Shown here piece after piece: positions 55,990 through 63,914 of a DNA stretch of 64,000 bases. This DNA comes from Dehalococcoidia bacterium (GTDB lineage Bacteria; Chloroflexota; Dehalococcoidia; Lucifugimonadales; JAAXIE01): positions 2,596,445-2,660,444 of the forward strand of contig OZ240229.1 in the NCBI GenBank assembly GCA_965197805.1, given 5' to 3'. The translations under genes were made by a program, and so were the position numbers. The notes beneath the pieces are model-generated. The model ran no database searches. It saw nothing but the letters and a program-made list of their open reading frames with translations, and had not been told where the DNA came from. The stretch's first letter is position 1. Every line of letters begins with the position of its first letter.

Positions 55990-56268
55990 TTATTGAATAC
56001 TAAAGCAGAGTCGGCGTATCTGAGAATCGATGCTGTCAGTGGTGCAAACCTTTGTGGACCTCAGCCACATCTGGCCTATGTCCATCTCCCGCACTTGCCT
56101 CTGTCCGAACTCGAATTGATACTTGGTTGTTGGTAGCACGTTGAGCTGATGCAGAATGGGTGTAGGCAGGCAACAGATGGACGCCCCGGTGTCCACTAGC
56201 GCCTCGAGTGTCACCCAGTTTTGGCCTTCCAGGTTGCTGACTTCTATGGGCATGGCAAAAACTCCCAT
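55990..56268 (-). pseudogene. Truncated clan AA (retropepsin-like) aspartic protease
   Basis: EALVDTGASICCLP. The second half (LLG-x-x-LE motif) is missing. Confidence 0.65.
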
Positions 56269-56325
56269 AGGAACCCCTTTTGTTGCTCGTCGATTTTTCG
56301 GTTGATCCACAATAGGGGCACGGCC

Positions 56326-57957
56326 CTAGCTTGAGAACACGGGGTCCTCACGGGTGATGAATTCGAGGACGGCGGGGTGGCCGGCGGCGGTGGACTCTAG
56401 GGCACGGCGGATTGCGGGGACGATTTCGCCGGGGCGTTCGACGCGCTGGCTGAAGGAGCCGAGGGACTGGGTCATGCTCATGTAGTCGCCGGTGAGGTAC
56501 TTGGTGCGGTAGCGCTCGGCCGCCACAGGGATGTTCTTCTCGTAGCCGCCCATGGCTGAGTTGTTGAGGATCACGGTCATGAGAGGGATTCGCTCGCGGA
56601 CTGCCGTCTCAAAGTCGATGCCCGCCATGCCCACGGCGGTGTCGCCCATGACGTTGATGGCCTGCTTACCTGGGGCCGCGAGTTGCGCTCCCAGAGCGAG
56701 GCCAAGTCCGGTGCCCAACTGGGTGGAGTTGCCCCAGCCGATGTAGGTGCGAGGGTTGGTCGTCTGCCAGAAGGGGACCATCTGGTCGCGGGGGTTGCCT
56801 GAATCGTGGGTGGCGATTGTGTTGCCTACGTCGACGGTGTGGAGCAGGTCCCAGATCACCCGGTAGGGGTTGAGGGGCACTTGGTCAGAGGTGAGACGCT
56901 CGCCCCACTGCTTGAGCCAGTCTTCCTTGACCGACTTTATCTCTGCTGCTGTCCCGTTGGCATTCGACGGACCATTAGCTCCGGCTTGGGCCTTCACCTC
57001 GTCAATCACTTGGCGCAACACCAGCTTGGCATCGCCGATAATCGCTATGTCGATGGGGTACTCGCCGTTGATGTCCTTGGCGTCGTTAGTGGACTGGACC
57101 ATGACTTTGCCCTTGGGGACGGTAGTCGACACCAGCGTTTTCTGGAAACTGGTGCCGATGCCGAAGACAAGGTCGCACTTGTCTAGGAAGTGACCCACCA
57201 TGCGGGTGCGGGTGTTGCCGCCAGCACCCAAGGCGAGGGCGTGGTTTTCGGGGAAGGAGCTCTTGCCAAGGGTGGTGGTCATCACCGGGGCTTGGAGTAG
57301 CTCGGCAAGCTCGACCAACTCGTCGGTCGCCTCGGCGTAGAGGCAGCCCTGACCGGCGTAGACCAGCGGCAGCTTGGCTCCCAGAAGGGCGCGGGCTACG
57401 TCAGCGACGTCGCGGGGGTCGCCTGCGCTGCGGATGGGACGCACCGGGCTGTATTGGACCTCGTCTGCGACGGGGGCCATAGCCACATCGCCAGGGACCT
57501 CGAGCAACACGGGAGAGGGTCTGCCGGAACGGAGGTAGGTGAACGCGCGACGCATCATCTCCGGCACACGGGCGGGCGAATTGATGAGCTCGGCCCACTT
57601 GGTGATGCCGCGGTAATTCTCCATGCCGGAGAAGTTGGAGGGCGTGCCCAGCTTGTCCGTGCCAGCCTGCCCCGGCAGCACAAGGATGGGAGTGGAGTCG
57701 GCATAGGCTTGGGCGATGCCTCCGAAGGCGTTCTCGATACCCGGCCCAGCCTGTACGGTCAGCACGCCGGTGCGGCGACCGTTGAGGGTGCGGGTGTAGC
57801 CGTCGGCCATGTTGACGGCGCAGCGCTCCATGCGGGCGACTATGGGGCGTATCTCGGCAGCGGCGGCGGCATCGATGATGGGGCTGTTGGGGAAGCAGAA
57901 GAGGTATTCCACTCCCTCTTGCTTCAGGATGTCGGCGATAGCATTGCGTGCTTCCAC
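56326..57957 (-). CDS. Thiamine-pyrophosphate-requiring enzyme (acetolactate synthase superfamily)
   Basis: ERCAVNMADG, GPGIEN, SPVLLEVP, TPP motif GDTAVGM...LNNS. Confidence 0.92.
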   Translation of the reverse strand: MEARNAIADILKQEGVEYLFCFPNSPIIDAAAAAEIRPIVARMERCAVNMADGYTRTLNGRRTGVLTVQAGPGIENAFGGIAQAYADSTPILVLPGQAGTDKLGTPSNFSGMENYRGITKWAELINSPARVPEMMRRAFTYLRSGRPSPVLLEVPGDVAMAPVADEVQYSPVRPIRSAGDPRDVADVARALLGAKLPLVYAGQGCLYAEATDELVELAELLQAPVMTTTLGKSSFPENHALALGAGGNTRTRMVGHFLDKCDLVFGIGTSFQKTLVSTTVPKGKVMVQSTNDAKDINGEYPIDIAIIGDAKLVLRQVIDEVKAQAGANGPSNANGTAAEIKSVKEDWLKQWGERLTSDQVPLNPYRVIWDLLHTVDVGNTIATHDSGNPRDQMVPFWQTTNPRTYIGWGNSTQLGTGLGLALGAQLAAPGKQAINVMGDTAVGMAGIDFETAVRERIPLMTVILNNSAMGGYEKNIPVAAERYRTKYLTGDYMSMTQSLGSFSQRVERPGEIVPAIRRALESTAAGHPAVLEFITREDPVFSS

Positions 57958-57974: not shown

Positions 57975-58069
57975 TTGCTTCAGGATTTGGGGGTTGCTTC
58001 AGGATTTGGGGGTTGCTTCAGGATTTGGGGGTTGCTTCAGGATTTGGGGGTTGCTTCAGGATTTGGGGG
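57975..58069. repeat. Five perfect tandem copies of a 19-mer
   Basis: TTGCTTCAGGATTTGGGGG x5. Confidence 0.97.
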
Positions 58070-58165
58070 CCGGACCGGGTCCGGGGTATTGGGTTGTGTC
58101 GGGTTCACTGTAAGGGAGGGAGGGGAGCAAGGCAAGGCGGCGAGGTCGGGGTCGGCGTCGGGGGG

Positions 58166-58365
58166 TGTCACAATGTCACAGGCGGTTGTATCTAAAAAAG
58201 GGTTTTTGTAGCTGAAAAGTGTGACATCTGTGACATTGTGCTAGCTGGCCAGATAGGCGCACGGTGTGACATGGATTCGTATCTGAGGGGGTGTCACAGA
58301 AATGTGACATTTGTGACATTTGTGACATTGTGCTAGCTGGCCAGCTAGGGTCACAGTGTGACATG
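58166..58365. repeat. TGTGACA/TGTCACA iteron-like array
   Basis: 10 exact heptamers in both orientations, plus a direct repeat of about 54 bp and the perfect palindrome CTAGCTGGCCAGCTAG at 58333-58348. Confidence 0.9.
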
Positions 58366-58419
58366 CAGGACACCCTCCTGAGTTGGGCTGAGAGCGGATA
58401 GTCGGGGTGATCAGAGTTG

Positions 58420-58449
58420 ATTATAGAACTGATGTACGTTGCATGTCAA
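58420..58449 (-). promoter_or_regulatory. Leftward sigma70 promoter with LexA-like box
   Basis: Minus strand reads TTGACA-tgcaac-GTAC-atca-GTTC-TATAAT. Confidence 0.75.
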
Positions 58450-58456
58450 TAAGCCC

Positions 58457-58486
58457 TTGACAGATTCCGTACATATGTTCTATGAT
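58457..58486 (+). promoter_or_regulatory. Rightward sigma70 promoter with LexA-like box
   Basis: TTGACA-gattcc-GTAC-atat-GTTC-TATGAT. Confidence 0.75.
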
Positions 58487-58504
58487 AGTTTTGTTGAGCG
58501 CGCT

Positions 58505-58546
58505 GGGGACTGACCCCAAGAGGTCGGCCCCGGCTTTTTTGTTTTT
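58505..58546 (+). terminator. Intrinsic terminator-like hairpin
   Basis: GGGGACTGACC/GGTCGGCCCC stem followed by ggcTTTTTTgTTTTT. Confidence 0.65.
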
Positions 58547-58594
58547 ACGGACAAGGGCTTGGGCCTCCAAACCTTATCGAGAGGAAGGAGACCC

Positions 58595-59104
58595 ATGGAG
58601 GATGAGCAACAGGTGCCAAGAGGAAGCGACTATGGTGGCGGCGAGGAAGGGGTTAGCGAGGCGACACCCGAGGGCAAGGAAGAGAGGGGCTGCGGAAAGA
58701 GGGGTTACAGGGAGGAGTGGCTTGGCACGACGGTAGCGAAGGAGCGGTTTTTGGCGGCGCACAAGCTGGGCATGTCGGTGGTGAATGCGGCGCGGGTGGC
58801 GGGAGTTGAGCGTCGGACCATCTACCGGTGGCGGGACAAGGACCCGGAGTTTGCCAAGGCATGGAGGGAGGCGCGGGAGGGGCTGGTAGAAGACTTGGAA
58901 ATGGAGGCTTACAAGCGGGCTTTCAAGGGGAATGACCGCCTGCTGATGTTCCTTCTGAGGTCGTACAAGCCGGTGACGTACAACCCGGTGGCGTACAACC
59001 CGCGCCAACAGCAGGGGAAGAAGAGCCAACAGCAGCCCAAGTCCAGAGGGGGCAATGCTGTGGACTTAGTGGAACTGGTGGACAAGGTGCGGGAATGGAA
59101 ATAG
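58595..59104 (+). CDS. Terminase small subunit-like HTH protein
   Basis: AARVAGVERRTIYRWRDKDPEFAKAW...LEMEAYKRA...LLMFLL. Overlaps the terL start. AAGGAG RBS. Confidence 0.7.
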   Translation: MEDEQQVPRGSDYGGGEEGVSEATPEGKEERGCGKRGYREEWLGTTVAKERFLAAHKLGMSVVNAARVAGVERRTIYRWRDKDPEFAKAWREAREGLVEDLEMEAYKRAFKGNDRLLMFLLRSYKPVTYNPVAYNPRQQQGKKSQQQPKSRGGNAVDLVELVDKVREWK

Positions 59105-60558
59105 AGGAAGGGGCAGGGGCCGCTTGGCAGTTTCTTGGAGAGGGGGTCAATGGGGATGTGTTCTTCGACGACCACCGCGATGACCTGCCCGGCTACGAGG
59201 TCCCGAAGGACTTGGCGGAGGTTTTCAGGAGCTCGCCAGTGGGCTTTGCGCGTGAGTACCTGGGGGTGCGGCTGTGGAGCAAGCAGGAAGAGACGCTGAA
59301 CGCCATCCGGGACTACCGGCGGGTTGCGGTGAAGGCGGGGAACGGAGTGGGGAAGGGGTTCACGGCGGCTGTGGCGGTGCTGTGGTTCATCTGCAGCCAC
59401 AACCCGGCGATAGTGCTGACGACGGCGCCCACTGGGCGGCAAGTGCGGCACGTTCTGTGGCGCGAGATCCGGGGCCTTCATGAGAACTCAGCACTTGGCC
59501 TGGGCGGGAGGATGTTCAACACGCGTTTCGAGGTTGGCCATGACCGGTTTGCGCTGGGCCTCTCCACCGACGAGGCGGACCAGTTTCAGGGGTTCCACTC
59601 GCCGAACATGCTGATCGTGGTGGACGAGGCGGAGGGCGTGACGGAACCGATCTACGAGGCCATTGACGCGGTGATGACGGCGAGCAACAGCAAGCTGCTG
59701 CTGATCGGCAACCCGACCAGCGACTCGGGGGCATTCCGCCGGGCCTTCCACGAAGACCGGCGCATATTCCACAACATTACCATATCCGTCTTGGAGTCCC
59801 CCAACGTGGGGCAACAGGGGGTGGTGATCCCTGGACTGACGACCGAGGAATGGGTGTCGGAGCGCAGGGCCATGTGGGGGGAAGAGAGCCCGATGTACCA
59901 AGCCCGGGTGCTGGGTCGCTTCTGCGACCACCCCCAAGACAGGCTGATTGCACTGAGCAAAATCGAAGCGGCCATAGCCCGCTATGGGAACCCGCTGGCG
60001 GAGGAAGGGGAAGAGGAGGAGGCTGAGGCACCGACTGTGCTGGCGGTAGACGTAGCCCGCTTCGGCCCCGACCAGAGCGTGTTACTCCTGGCCAACTCCA
60101 ACAGGGTTTTGGAGATGAAGGCTCACCAGGGCTTGGACACGATGGAACTGGCAGGACGCATCGTGGACGCGCACCGTCGCTGGGGCCCGGAGCGGATTGT
60201 GGTCGACGAAATCGGTATCGGGGCAGGGGTGGTGGACCGGCTGAAGGAGTTGGGCCTGCCGGTGGCTGGGATCAACGTAGGGCGGCCTGCCCGCCAACGG
60301 CGGATGTTCGCCAACCTGAGGGCCGAAGGGTACTGGGGCCTCTACGAACTGTTCAACCAGGACGCCATGGCCATCCCGGACGACCCCGAACTGGCGGGGC
60401 AGCTAGCAACGGTGCGCCACCGGTACAACAGCCGGGGCCAGTTGTTGATAGAATCCAAAGAGGAAACCCGTGCCCGGGGCCTGCCCTCCCCCGATAAAGC
60501 GGACGCTCTGATGCTCGCTTTCCTGAGCCACAGGCCCACTGTGACGCTGCGCACATGA
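59095..60558 (+). CDS. Phage terminase large subunit
   Basis: Walker A AGNGVGK, Walker B VVDEA, LIGNP coupling motif, RNase H-like AVDVARFGPD, SPDKADA. Confidence 0.9.
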   Translation: MEIEEGAGAAWQFLGEGVNGDVFFDDHRDDLPGYEVPKDLAEVFRSSPVGFAREYLGVRLWSKQEETLNAIRDYRRVAVKAGNGVGKGFTAAVAVLWFICSHNPAIVLTTAPTGRQVRHVLWREIRGLHENSALGLGGRMFNTRFEVGHDRFALGLSTDEADQFQGFHSPNMLIVVDEAEGVTEPIYEAIDAVMTASNSKLLLIGNPTSDSGAFRRAFHEDRRIFHNITISVLESPNVGQQGVVIPGLTTEEWVSERRAMWGEESPMYQARVLGRFCDHPQDRLIALSKIEAAIARYGNPLAEEGEEEEAEAPTVLAVDVARFGPDQSVLLLANSNRVLEMKAHQGLDTMELAGRIVDAHRRWGPERIVVDEIGIGAGVVDRLKELGLPVAGINVGRPARQRRMFANLRAEGYWGLYELFNQDAMAIPDDPELAGQLATVRHRYNSRGQLLIESKEETRARGLPSPDKADALMLAFLSHRPTVTLRT

Positions 60559-60780
60559 GTCCTGCTGCTATTGATCCCATTCCACGTATGGGGGCCACAC
60601 CACGTATGGGGGCGTTGGATGCCGTGGGATGTGGCCGTCTGCCCCGTGACCACAGGTCTCGCTAGAATCGGCGGACTAGCGGGTGGGAAAAGGCGGGTGT
60701 GGACTTGAATGGCTTCCAGCGTAAGGAGCGGTGATAGTGCTGCCAGGGGGGTAGTGTATCAGTTTGAAACTGGGGGCCCG

Positions 60781-61251
60781 TCAGCATGGGCTACCGAAGC
60801 GTAGGCAGGGCAGCATATCACCTCCGGGGTCGGTTTCAGTCAAGTATCCTTGATCATTGAGGTCCGCTATCTCCGGCCATGTTTCTAGGTAGCGGAGCGC
60901 AGTAGCTGACGCGGCAAGATTGGTTTCGTGATAGTTGCTGCCCCATGTTATGTAGCTAAGTACGATCTTACCTAGGTTAGGGTTGTAGACAAAGCTGGAC
61001 TGGATGCTGTGCCCCCATATTGGGTCGTCACGCGGGACCTCACAAATGTGATCAGGTTGTGCTGATGTGTTAGCGACGACCAATCTCCCATTGCGGTCAT
61101 ACTGAATGTGTACTGTCTCACACGGTTGCCCAGCTACCCAAGTGTGCTTGGCATAGGTGGGGTCGTCTTCCCAACTTGAGCAACTTGCTAGCGCGATAGA
61201 TACCGCGCACAGCAGGGCGAGAACTAGAGGGAACCCAACGACGTTGGACAA
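60781..61251 (-). CDS. Hypothetical lipoprotein (cargo)
   Basis: TTG start, hydrophobic signal and lipobox LASC. No recognisable family. Confidence 0.55.
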   Translation of the reverse strand: MSNVVGFPLVLALLCAVSIALASCSSWEDDPTYAKHTWVAGQPCETVHIQYDRNGRLVVANTSAQPDHICEVPRDDPIWGHSIQSSFVYNPNLGKIVLSYITWGSNYHETNLAASATALRYLETWPEIADLNDQGYLTETDPGGDMLPCLRFGSPC

Positions 61252-61482
61252 AAGGAGCCCCCCCTTGCTGGAGAGATGATCGGGCTGCTCCTGGCACGAA
61301 TCAGCCGTCCCACAGCAGACCGCAAGGGGGCGTGAGACGCCCCATCTCGCTAATGGTCTGCTGGGCATGGGGCGACGCGCTCGTGCCAGGAGCAAGCGCA
61401 ATATAGCAGGAAGCTCTTGACAGCCTACCCCATAGTCGGTAGCGTTGAAGTATGCATATAGAGACCTCATAGGAGGCCCGTC

Positions 61483-61941
61483 ATGCCAACGGGACCTAAC
61501 GGAGAACGAAGGTCCGGGAACCCAATAGCCCGCGCCGTTCAGATCGGGAAGATTGCTACCGGAGAGGAGACTGACGGCGCTATGGGCATTTTTACGGCGG
61601 CTGTTCTTGTCGGCAATATGGCCGGCGGTGAGTTACACGATGTGGAGGCCATTGTTGACACCGGCTCCTTGCATACGGTACTGCCTCGTAGCCTCTTGAA
61701 TACACTAGGCGTCCAAACACCCTATCAATGTGCGGTTACCTTCGCCAATGGCATAGAGGATACTTGGGATATGGGCCAAGCACGATTCGAGATTGGCGAT
61801 AAAGTGCTTATCTGTAACGTCCTAGCAGGTCCGGAGCAAGAGGCGCTGCTAGGGGCGACAACACTTGAAGCGTTTGGGTTGATGGTGGACCCGATGAACA
61901 GTGCGCTTGTACCAAAACTCATTCGCGGGCGACCGCTGTAG
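61483..61941 (+). CDS. Clan AA aspartic protease with an N-terminal IS-associated peptide
   Basis: AIVDTGSLHTVLP and ALLGATTLEAFGLMVDP. N-terminus MPTGPNGERR...KIATGE. AGGAGG RBS. Confidence 0.8.
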   Translation: MPTGPNGERRSGNPIARAVQIGKIATGEETDGAMGIFTAAVLVGNMAGGELHDVEAIVDTGSLHTVLPRSLLNTLGVQTPYQCAVTFANGIEDTWDMGQARFEIGDKVLICNVLAGPEQEALLGATTLEAFGLMVDPMNSALVPKLIRGRPL

Positions 61942-62008
61942 GGCGTAACTGAGAGCGCCTGTAAAGCCTCGGCTGTAGGGCCGAGGCTTTTTATTTGTCG
62001 CATTTTGC

Positions 62009-62398
62009 TTGACAACTGTATCACCGATAAAGACCCGCGCACAGATTCTTCAGATGCTCCTTGAGGGTTCCTCCATTCGGTCTACGGCGCGTGTGACGGG
62101 CGTTGCTCGGGTGGTGACTGGGAATCCGCGGCGGGAGGACATCAGCACTTCCCATGTCGAGCGCCATAACCTCACAATACGGATGAGTATGAGGCGCTTT
62201 ACCCGGCTGACTAACGGCTTCTCGAAGAAGATGGAGAACCACGTGCACATGCTGGCAATCTACTTTGTCTCGTACAACTGGTGCAGGCCCCACAAATCAC
62301 TCGCAGGACAAACCCCGGCTATGGCAGCGGGCCTCGCAGACCGTCAGTACGACGCCAAGTGGATGCTTGGCTTGAATACTAAACTACGTTCAAACTGA
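62009..62398 (+). pseudogene. IS1-family transposase with central deletion
   Basis: N-terminal RAQILQMLLEGSSIRSTARVTGV joined directly to C-terminal ISTSHVERHNLTIRMSMRRFTRLTNGFSKK...TPAMAAGL. Confidence 0.8.
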
Positions 62399-62681
62399 TA
62401 CTACCCGCTGGGGGGCCTACTTGCGTTAGGTGGGGATTGTGCCGAGCAGACGGCAGACCCCATGGCCATTCCAGAGACGCCTGATATCATGCCCGCTCGA
62501 GAGCCTCGTTGGACCGAGAGGTCGCCAAAGCGAAAGAAAGGGACTGATGGGTTGGGGGGTTTGGTGAAGGGTGGGAGGCTATGCGGTCGCGTTGACTGTA
62601 GCTGTACGGCGCAGGTACACTCCCGCGAAGCTGATGTGCTGAAGTGGGTGTGTAGTCGGAAGATGCTTCGGAGACTCAGGG

Positions 62682-63914
62682 GTGGGACTGTTGCGAGTGG
62701 TGTTGGAGAAGCTGATTGGGGCCTTGGGGGCAGCCAGCCGCACCAACCACGGCCTGCTGGACTCTCTTGCGGGGATTCGGGCACGTCAGAGGTTGTCGCT
62801 TGCGGTGCGCTACTGGGGCTGGAGAAAGCTGTTCAACCTGATATTGGTGGAGTTCCAGCTATGGATAGGGCGCACTCGCGTGTGGGGCTACCCCTTCGAG
62901 TGGGAGGTCGACACCACCAACATCTGCCAACTGAAATGCCCCCTGTGTCATACCGGTCTCGGGACGGTACACCGCGAAAAGGGAACCATGCACTTCGAAA
63001 CCTTCACCTCAACCGTCGACCAAATGAAAAACTACTGTATCTGGCTCAGTCTCTACAGCTGGGGCGAGCCCTTCCTGAACCGGGACATCGACCGGTTCAT
63101 CGCCTACGCGCATGAGAAAAGCATCGCCACCATAGTCAGCAGCAACCTCAACAAGCCCCTCACTCCAGAAATGGCAGAGAGGCTGATACAGTCGGGCCTC
63201 GATGTGCTTATAGTCTCGTTGGATGGCACCACTCAAGACGTGTATGAGACGTACCGGGTGACCGGACATCTTGACCGGGTCCTGAACAACCTACGCCTGA
63301 TAGTGGAGACCCGCAAGCGTCTCGGCTCGAGGACTCCCTTCCTTGAGTGGCAGTACATCGTGATGCGCCAGAACGAGCATCAGATGGAGGATGCCCGGCG
63401 CATGGCCGAGGAGATGGGTGTGGACACCATCACCTTCAAGCCTGTGGACTTCCCTCACGGCGAAAAGGATATCGAACTGGCCCGACAGTGGCTGCCACAG
63501 GCGGAGCTTGATGCACGGCTAGCCAACCCGTTCCGCAAGCCCTACGCCGAGGACGGCTCGCGCTGCTGGAGGCTGTGGCGCAGCGCCGTGGTCAACTGGG
63601 ATGGAGGGTACGCGCCCTGCTGCTACCTGACCGACGCTGTGGACGATTTCGGCGATGTGCGCACCCACTCCATCAAGGAGATCTGGAACAACGACCTGTA
63701 CCGCACTGCGCGAGGACTATTCCGCGAGTCGGGGACACCCAAGCAGTATGTAGGATGCCTCGACTGTAGTGTTTACAATGGTTCCAAGGCCGCCAAGTCG
63801 CGCGACCCGGCCAGACTGCCGCGGCGTAATGGTTATTCGTCGCCCGCGTGGGCACCGCTGGTGGAGGCCAAGTCAAAGAGCCGCATCGAGGCTGGAGATG
63901 GCTCACAACAGTAA
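62682..63914 (+). CDS. Radical SAM/SPASM-domain protein
   Basis: CQLKCPLC, WGEPFLN, SSN, VSLDG. C-terminal CWRLW...PCC...C. Confidence 0.9.
   Translation: MGLLRVVLEKLIGALGAASRTNHGLLDSLAGIRARQRLSLAVRYWGWRKLFNLILVEFQLWIGRTRVWGYPFEWEVDTTNICQLKCPLCHTGLGTVHREKGTMHFETFTSTVDQMKNYCIWLSLYSWGEPFLNRDIDRFIAYAHEKSIATIVSSNLNKPLTPEMAERLIQSGLDVLIVSLDGTTQDVYETYRVTGHLDRVLNNLRLIVETRKRLGSRTPFLEWQYIVMRQNEHQMEDARRMAEEMGVDTITFKPVDFPHGEKDIELARQWLPQAELDARLANPFRKPYAEDGSRCWRLWRSAVVNWDGGYAPCCYLTDAVDDFGDVRTHSIKEIWNNDLYRTARGLFRESGTPKQYVGCLDCSVYNGSKAAKSRDPARLPRRNGYSSPAWAPLVEAKSKSRIEAGDGSQQ

Follow-up and report, generated by a model that had tools for sequence, protein, structure and literature searches.

In the gene transfer agent (GTA) of Rhodobacter capsulatus, RcGTA, and its alphaproteobacterial homologs, head and packaging genes of phage origin have become fixed in the chromosome, where they are split over several loci, inherited vertically under purifying selection and accompanied by neither an integrase nor a replication module. 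RcGTA encodes one pair of small and large terminase subunits (terS and terL), which lies in a ~15-kb head-tail cluster with tail genes. Capsid-forming phage-inducible chromosomal islands (cf-PICIs) are tail-stealing satellites, ~15-kb mobile islands that carry an integrase, AlpA and a primase-replicase, and the Staphylococcus aureus pathogenicity islands (SaPIs) and PICIs that encode the small terminase TerS-SP carry terS alone and borrow the TerL of a helper. In the terminase of phage lambda, the N-terminal ~50 residues of gpA pair with gpNu1, and its extreme C-terminus pairs with the prohead. Here, we analyze a terS-terL pair within a 64,000-nt stretch (the window) of the genome of an uncultured Dehalococcoidia bacterium, in which an initial annotation had noticed that both genes are intact and stand apart from any portal, capsid or integrase gene. 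We conclude that the pair, intact and constrained, is a paralog of a resident head module's terminase and not a recent prophage remnant.

The source genome (G000) is a single contig of 3.68 Mb, which together with four congeners (G001-G004) makes up a genus set of five. Every genome compared is a metagenome-assembled genome (MAG), and in long-read MAGs some stop codons may be assembly errors. We refer to the window pair as copy A and to the other terS-terL copies of the source genome as B, C and D; copy C is linked to a portal gene at a site that we call locus C.

The system to which copy A belongs shares with RcGTA the fixation of split, phage-derived head and packaging genes in the chromosome, their vertical inheritance under purifying selection and the lack of integrase and replication genes. 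Unlike RcGTA, it yielded no tape-measure gene in the genomes searched, its capsid and terminase operons are divergent or unlinked, and its terminase has multiplied into portal-less paralogs. Locus C, and only locus C, resembles the packaging module of a cf-PICI in having terS, terL, portal, protease, major capsid, adaptor/connector and HNH genes and no tail genes. In contrast to a cf-PICI, it has no integrase within 50 kb (AlpA and primase were not searched for), is syntenic and co-diverges with housekeeping genes, and is split into divergent operons with inserted Toll/interleukin-1 receptor (TIR), HicB and repeat-protein genes, and no helper phage is known for it. As with TerS-SP of SaPIs and PICIs, an extra small terminase unlinked to virion genes is predicted here to confer new packaging specificity on capsids encoded elsewhere, but each cassette described below brings its own TerL with a matching N-terminus. 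Co-segregation of terS with the TerL N-terminus, alongside a core and C-terminus common to paralogs, recalls lambda gpNu1-gpA, although no sequence relation is detectable and here recombination patterns alone suggest the interaction. The best structural match in both domains is Sf6 gp2 and the P22-like large terminases (PDB 4IDH, 5C10), which have the C-terminal nuclease motif PSPxxADALM in common with TerL, although sequence identity is only ~18% and Sf6 gp2 comes from the genome of a complete phage. To our knowledge, multiplication of just the terminase into constrained paralogs that lack a portal and have swappable cassettes of terS and the TerL N-terminus has not been described for any GTA or satellite.

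The terS-terL pair of the window

Copy A comprises the following features:

58595..59104, plus strand: terS, small terminase subunit of 169 aa from its ATG, with a AGGAAGGAG ribosome-binding site
59095..60558, plus strand: terL, large terminase subunit of 487 aa, open reading frame (ORF) uninterrupted
59338-59358, 59617-59634 and 59707-59718, plus strand: Walker A, Walker B and GNPT motifs of the TerL ATPase domain (~residues 45-300)
60049-60051, 60205-60210 and 60493-60504, plus strand: D319, D371/E372 and D467/D470 of the TerL RNase H-like nuclease (~residues 310-480)

The start of terL overlaps the end of terS by 10 nt (ATGGAAATAG), and the two genes are intact and translationally coupled. 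The longest terS ORF begins upstream, at a TTG at 58559. TerS is laid out as a variable acidic N-terminus, a conserved helix-turn-helix (HTH; ~residues 48-92) and a helical GNDRLLMFLLKSYKP core, and its A-type allele contains a 15-bp tandem of 2.7 units at 58962-59002. TerS matched PHROG 4044, "terminase small subunit" (1.8e-20), and more weakly ten further PHROG families, seven of which are annotated as terminase; its Pfam matches were limited to sub-threshold hits to HTH families and Sf6_terminase. TerL matched PHROG 2, "terminase large subunit" (8.3e-36), and in Pfam gave weak AAA matches only.

The ATPase motifs of TerL, which are Walker A GNGVGKG (K87), Walker B VVDEAEG (D177, E178) and the coupling motif GNPT (205-208), are invariant in a family alignment of 45 sequences, and the nuclease acidic residues listed above are likewise invariant, copy A included. 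An AlphaFold model of TerL (pLDDT, the predicted local distance difference test, 77) was compared with the PDB by Foldseek, and the closest match was Sf6 gp2 (E 2.6e-21), with both domains covered, followed by T4 gp17 (1.1e-14), HK97 (8.7e-14) and then the D6E, E217 and P74-26 terminases. All of the best 42 matches were terminases. The nuclease domain, which also aligns to Sf6 gp2, superposes on the E217, Sf6 and G20c nucleases with template modeling (TM) scores of 0.67-0.71. With uninterrupted ORFs, invariant motifs and a fold that matches solved terminases, the pair is as intact as the initial annotation had described it.

The claimed isolation of the pair also held. No portal or capsid gene lies near copy A in the window, the sole portal of the genome being ~820 kb off beside paralog C, and the seven PF00589 tyrosine recombinases of the genome all lie outside the window and more than 50 kb from every terS-terL copy. 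The composition of copy A is host-like (GC content 0.635 vs 0.601 for the genome; tetranucleotide distance at the 84th percentile), and the window contains no tRNA.

Terminase paralogs and a single head module

terS occurs eight times in the source genome, four times paired with terL and four times alone, whereas capsid and portal each occur once. In addition to copy A, the pairs and solo terS paralogs are:

738 kb: copy B, intact, 81% identical to A
3.48 Mb: copy C, portal-linked, 70-76% identical, 564 aa, with a linker rich in proline, serine and threonine (P/S/T) between both domains
609 kb: copy D, frameshifted, in three pieces
1295174-1295632, minus strand: solo terS
~1846704-1846949, minus strand: solo terS
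2351324-2351833, plus strand: solo terS
~3603254-3603586, plus strand: solo terS

Every terL copy in the genus has terS directly upstream, and at least two of the solo terS genes (1295k and 2351k) are preceded by a promoter-leader cassette that is also found before terS-terL. Orphan pairs, which lack a linked portal, occur in four of the five genus genomes, G003 having only fragments. Beyond the genus, we found at most one terL copy per genome in the genomes covered by our searches. In a maximum-likelihood tree of TerL (support values are given in pairs), all copies of the genus form one clade (100/100), and 12 orphan copies form a clade (96/99) nested among the portal-linked copies, which indicates that the orphan pairs arose by duplication of the resident terminase inside the lineage. 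Copy A is sister to the copy of a 97%-identical metagenomic strain (100/99).

One orphan locus, arranged valS...(preS)-terS-terL-HAD-coaBC, is syntenic in seven or more genomes and contigs, among them the source genome (copy B), G001, G004 and four metagenomic contigs, and is nearly deleted in G003. Other orphans (e.g., A, G001a, G001d, G002c and P0005) occupy non-syntenic sites. The ratio of nonsynonymous to synonymous substitution rates (dN/dS) of orphan terL is 0.11-0.23, with dS up to 0.9, and is 0.20 for copy A against the 97%-identical strain; the corresponding values for terS are 0.2-0.5. Judged from these sequence comparisons, copy A is under purifying selection and is selectively maintained. 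Conservation, synteny and dN/dS in relatives had been proposed as checks on the pair; among the orphans, the valS...HAD locus is syntenic in several species. The simple alternative offered at the outset, a recent prophage remnant, is unsupported for the gene family, given that no full prophage occupies the site in relatives, that orphans are present in most of the genus and that terL is constrained to the degree just stated.

The long forms of TerL (G000C, G001c, G001d, G002b and G002c) carry variable P/S/T-rich low-complexity inserts of ~80-260 aa between the ATPase and nuclease, with repeated VIPAQAGTHVTP-like units. We considered an intein as the source of the additional length and rejected it, the inserts being low-complexity linkers.

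Copy C belongs to a head module with the following location:

G000:C1:3470056-3485261: locus C (L010), conserved tail-less head module in two divergent operons

Its minus strand encodes an S78 prohead protease, an HK97-type capsid, a head-tail adaptor, a connector/tail-terminator-like gene and an HNH endonuclease, and its plus strand encodes terS, terL, a 770-aa repeat protein and the portal, followed by gapdh. Two insertions were seen in the source species. A HicB-like gene and a TIR-domain gene (CAP12/Pycsar-type; PADLOC PDC-S35 5e-22) lie between the protease and terS at L010 6070-7994 (G000 ~3476069-3477993). The 770-aa repeat-rich ORF (L010 11535-13847) is wedged between terL and portal and overlaps the terL stop; it gave no family matches, occurs only in the source species and has a 37% relative in an ORF of 488 aa close to the decayed copy D.

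Exactly one capsid gene and one portal match above the Pfam cut-off were found in the source genome, ~820 kb from the window, and the same count was obtained for each genome of the genus. Locus C is syntenic in G001, G003 and G004. Capsid dN/dS is 0.056-0.079 at dS 0.75-1.1, which is like gapdh (0.05-0.07), valS and coaBC, and portal dN/dS is 0.17-0.18. Outside the genus, TerL relatives with 50-65% identity were found at 80 loci from ~75 Dehalococcoidia species, some of them represented by SAR202-labelled MAGs; in 73 of these loci the next gene downstream is a portal relative, and the pair is bordered by host genes. Of 41 relatives at the order level, 11 have capsid, portal and TerL together, all 11 having larger genomes. 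Among viruses, the best identity was 39% in 50,697 GenBank phage records and 37% in IMG/VR, with nothing closer in either set. Together, the synteny, the housekeeping-like capsid dN/dS, the class-wide TerL-portal pairs and the lack of a close viral relative in these sets indicate a cellular, vertically inherited lineage rather than a circulating prophage family. A search of the literature on SAR202, Dehalococcoidia or Chloroflexota for GTA, terminase or orphan terminase returned nothing relevant.

The initial annotation had suggested that the pair could be a domesticated packaging module of a split GTA- or satellite-like system, or else a damage-induced nuclease, and had proposed a search for unlinked virion genes. 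Portal and capsid genes were indeed found at an unlinked position, and a tape-measure gene was not found in the five genomes searched. Because a single conserved capsid/portal/protease/connector locus exists apart from paralogous terS-terL pairs that are constrained, the terms "split", "domesticated" and "GTA- or satellite-like" describe the system fairly; the supporting arguments from iterons and SOS-like control failed, as described below.

Packaging specificity and competing explanations

Two types of terS occur in the genus, an A-type of 150-180 aa and a B-type of 140 aa with an extra upstream gene. The terS type and the first ~35-50 residues of TerL are always inherited together, and the rest of TerL has a separate history. 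For example, identity between copy B and G001a is 90% for the TerL core, 48% for terS and 22% for the N-terminus, and between copy B and G001b the three values are 82%, 82% and 72%. The TerL core and C-terminal tail are common to orphan and portal-linked copies. This pattern is as expected if TerS docks on the TerL N-terminus and the paralogs keep one partner at the other end.

We give roughly even credence to the reading, drawn from sequence, that copy A is an active paralogous terminase of a vertically inherited, tail-less head module and is used as an alternative packaging-specificity cassette. The ancestral module, which is passed on vertically, consists of the genes for terS, terL and portal and for the S78 protease, HK97 capsid, adaptor, connector and HNH endonuclease, and within the genus the terS-terL operon with its promoter/terminator leader was duplicated to give portal-less orphan pairs, which have been kept at the valS...HAD locus and at variable sites. 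In the reading proposed here, TerS would bind DNA through its HTH and recruit TerL through the N-terminal ~35-50 residues of the latter, such that this segment and terS would form one swappable specificity cassette, and TerL would cut DNA with its RNase H-like nuclease and translocate it with its ATPase. The most likely docking site of an orphan TerL would be the single resident portal, or else that of an infecting kin phage, as suggested by the presence of one portal and one capsid in the genome and by the conservation of the TerL core and C-terminus among paralogs. Packaging would then begin at recognition sites of the orphans' own, in a system that is split and GTA-like or similar to a capsid-forming satellite.

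A broader proposal is tentative and, as a whole, rather unlikely: that Dehalococcoidia, including SAR202-type bacteria, carry a hitherto unreported capsid-portal-terminase system that lacks a tail and is passed on vertically, and that this system is a new family, either GTA-like or a "domesticated cf-PICI". The portal-less cassettes of this genus would serve in it as separate packaging starts, so that different parts of the chromosome could be exported with a single capsid set (programmed, multi-origin lateral transduction). Dehalococcoidia and SAR202 are abundant uncultured bacteria of oceans and sponges, and a capsid conserved like gapdh, together with a terminase and portal that recur in ~70 species and are absent from the viral sets searched, makes the system a strong candidate for a domesticated DNA-packaging device, and a candidate means of gene exchange, in that group. 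The terminase paralogs also offer a natural experiment on the evolution of packaging specificity.

Several findings weigh against a maintained packaging function. In G003, the portal-linked terL contains an in-frame TGA (G003:C1:3052556-3053113), which may be real decay or a long-read assembly error, and the valS-locus pair has been lost, which together suggest that the system is dispensable. Stops or frameshifts with the same two possible causes interrupt the portal at G004:C2:678063-679412, G016:C2:1046659-1047804, G023:C1:3361821-3362934 and G025:C1:159637-160779, and the head module may be non-functional in some genomes. A search for the PF10145 tape-measure family, and for no other tail family, in five genomes (four from the genus) found no such gene, which leaves an autonomous GTA unsupported; locus C ends at the connector/tail-terminator-like gene. 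The location of copy A is species-specific, and purifying selection is equally compatible with a selfish element.

A selfish origin is the subject of one alternative, which we consider rather unlikely. In it, copy A would be a hitchhiker, or "pac island", in which a minimal satellite-like terS-terL uses resident or kin-phage capsids to transduce itself and its flanks and re-enters new genomes when these flanks, or dispersed repeats, recombine homologously, with no gain to the host. Such an element would account for the variable copy number and non-syntenic sites (e.g., A, G001a, G001d, G002c and P0005), for decayed or solo remnants (copy D, the four solo terS and the G003 remnant) and for the mosaic genes and the mutual replacement of A-type and B-type cassettes at the valS locus. 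The duplicated unit is sharply limited to a repeat that resembles a miniature inverted-repeat transposable element (MITE), the promoter, terS and terL, and purifying selection is expected of an element that needs its own enzyme. However, the unit has no integrase (none within 50 kb), replication gene or right-end terminal repeat, and divergence at the valS locus has kept pace with that of the host (dS 0.75 for G004a vs G001b, against 0.66-1.1 for flanking genes). Furthermore, the mechanism is that of the alternative-terminase reading, from which the hitchhiker differs only in who benefits. Inertness, in which copy A would be the last piece of a decayed prophage or a segmental duplication that has not yet mutated, would suit its species-specific position in an insertion hot spot beside insertion sequence (IS) and MITE debris, and copy D and the G003 copies show that decay does occur. 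Yet the terL dN/dS range holds over dS up to 0.9 and the value is 0.20 even against the 97%-identical strain, all catalytic residues are invariant, the site is empty of prophage in relatives and the parental orphan locus is syntenic across several species, and we regard an inert copy as very unlikely.

Use of the pair outside packaging seems quite unlikely to us. An ATPase-nuclease neofunctionalised for host DNA processing, repair or anti-phage activity, guided by the HTH protein and possibly induced by stress, would be consistent with a pair that is intact and constrained without linked virion genes, with a strong promoter and terminator leader that suggests conditional expression, and with four solo terS paralogs that suggest the HTH protein can act alone. 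The packaging-specific features are nevertheless all kept, including GNPT and the C-terminal tail common to portal-linked copies, and the link to SOS is unsupported, the box in question lying in a cassette that also precedes catabolic genes and the lexA palindrome being spaced differently. PADLOC named no defence system for TerS or TerL and returned only three marginal ATPase-model matches for terL (Cas3d, RecD-like), and we rejected a defence-system identity. It is extremely unlikely that TerS-TerL is a terminase-derived transposase that mobilises the MITE-like repeat as its non-autonomous partner. The repeat does lie directly upstream of A-type pairs at four loci in four species, and G003, which has the fewest copies (3, versus 10-30 in the other four genomes), has no intact terL, an anecdotal coincidence at n=5. 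In contrast, neither a MITE end nor a TGTGACA word lies downstream of terL, the block is absent from B-type and C-type pairs, and the repeat was probably at the site beforehand, as G002 has it there without terS-terL; we know of no terminase-based transposon.

Insertion site, dispersed repeat and promoter cassette

Copy A lies within an insertion between a thiamine pyrophosphate (TPP)-enzyme gene and a radical S-adenosylmethionine (radical-SAM) gene:

56326-57957, minus strand: TPP-enzyme gene, left neighbor, divergent from the radical-SAM gene
~58150..62585, no strand: insertion of ~4.4 kb, bounds approximate, within ~25 bp
58160..58372, no strand: MITE-like dispersed repeat of ~205 bp, TGTGACA array with sharp ends and inverted ATGTCACA termini
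60781-61470, minus strand: lipoprotein gene, inside the insertion
61483-61941: Asp-protease gene, inside the insertion
62009-62398: IS1-like transposase remnant, inside the insertion
62682-63914: radical-SAM/SPASM gene, right neighbor

The insertion, which also holds the promoters described below, is bordered on both sides by conserved spacer sequence. In G001 and G003 nothing is inserted in the TPP/radical-SAM spacer, which measures 275 and 334 bp, respectively, and G002 has the MITE at the same point with a different ~8.8-kb insert that lacks terS-terL. Homology to A-type pairs elsewhere (81% at the nucleotide level to the valS-locus copy of G004) has its limits exactly at the MITE (58161) and at the end of terL (60527). 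The empty site in relatives and the limits of this homology indicate that copy A is a younger, species-specific secondary copy, which landed beside a pre-existing MITE. No MITE end, TGTGACA word or transposon end lies 3' of terL, where we found only a local 13-bp direct repeat, and to judge from these boundaries copy A was probably placed by recombination at the MITE. A strain-specific pair had been named as grounds for dismissing it; the position of copy A is indeed species-specific, but the gene family is not. The decay ascribed to neighboring genes applies to the IS1-like transposase remnant and the truncated Asp-protease ORF but not to the other neighbors.

The "iterons" that had been taken as support for a packaging element are one copy of the ~205-bp MITE-like repeat, whose interior contains a 54-bp duplication around the 16-bp palindrome CTAGCTGGCCAGCTAG. 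It is short, non-coding and sharply bounded, with inverted termini and many dispersed copies: 18 in the source genome, 21, 30, 3 (G003) and 10 in the four congeners, and none in four genomes of other families. The repeat adjoins the pair and is not specific to it, B-type and C-type pairs having no such block. We therefore rejected the array as an origin or pac site of a terminase element.

The region between the repeat and terS holds two promoters and a leader:

58420..58449, minus strand: second promoter copy, back to back with the first, TTGACA, 18 nt, TATAAT (12/12), facing the MITE block and the TPP-enzyme gene
58457..58486, plus strand: sigma-70-type promoter, TTGACA, 18 nt, TATGAT (11/12), with spacer motif ACATNNGTTCTA
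58501..58546, plus strand: leader hairpin (GCUGGGGACUGACC...GGUCGGCCCCGGC) followed by a U-tract, an attenuator that resembles an intrinsic terminator and lies after the promoter and ahead of the terS ribosome-binding site

A conserved AGAGCGCGC box lies between promoter and hairpin, which gives the cassette the order TTGACA..ACATNNGTTCTAnnAT..AGAGCGCGC..GGGGACTGACCCC hairpin..U-tract. The hairpin region folds at -45 kcal/mol over 109 nt (z -2.8). Of 19 genus loci, 16 have the leader ahead of terS, both orphan and portal-linked ones. It gave no Rfam match at E<=1, and the cassette may be a lineage-specific attenuator. The terminator between promoter and terS suggests that expression of copy A probably needs read-through.

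The cassette was found at 19 or more loci of the source genome, mostly before catabolic genes (e.g., 392978, 1556871, 2124077, 2351209, 3352151 and 3479076). The promoter holds GTAC-N4-GTTC, whereas the palindrome upstream of lexA (GAACATGTTC) is spaced N2 and nothing similar lies upstream of recA. The near-Cheo boxes are part of this repeated cassette and are not common to the lexA and recA upstream regions, and we regard SOS control, which the initial annotation had invoked, as unsupported. We conclude that neither the promoter cassette nor the MITE is terminase-specific and that specific control of the pair by SOS or iterons is unsupported; for annotation in general, "iterons" and "SOS boxes" beside a gene can be portable repeats.

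Comparison of the window with L133, L134 and L135 marks the TPP/radical-SAM spacer as an insertion hot spot. Directly upstream of the TPP-enzyme start codon, at 57975-58069, is a perfect tandem of five 19-bp units (TTGCTTCAGGATTTGGGGG), which the orthologous spacers in G001, G002 and G003 lack. Retropepsin-like Asp-protease paralogs (PF13975/PF13650) are numerous in the source genome, with at least 24 tblastn matches; those in the window are at 55990-56310 and 61483-61941, and copies occur near both the A and B loci.

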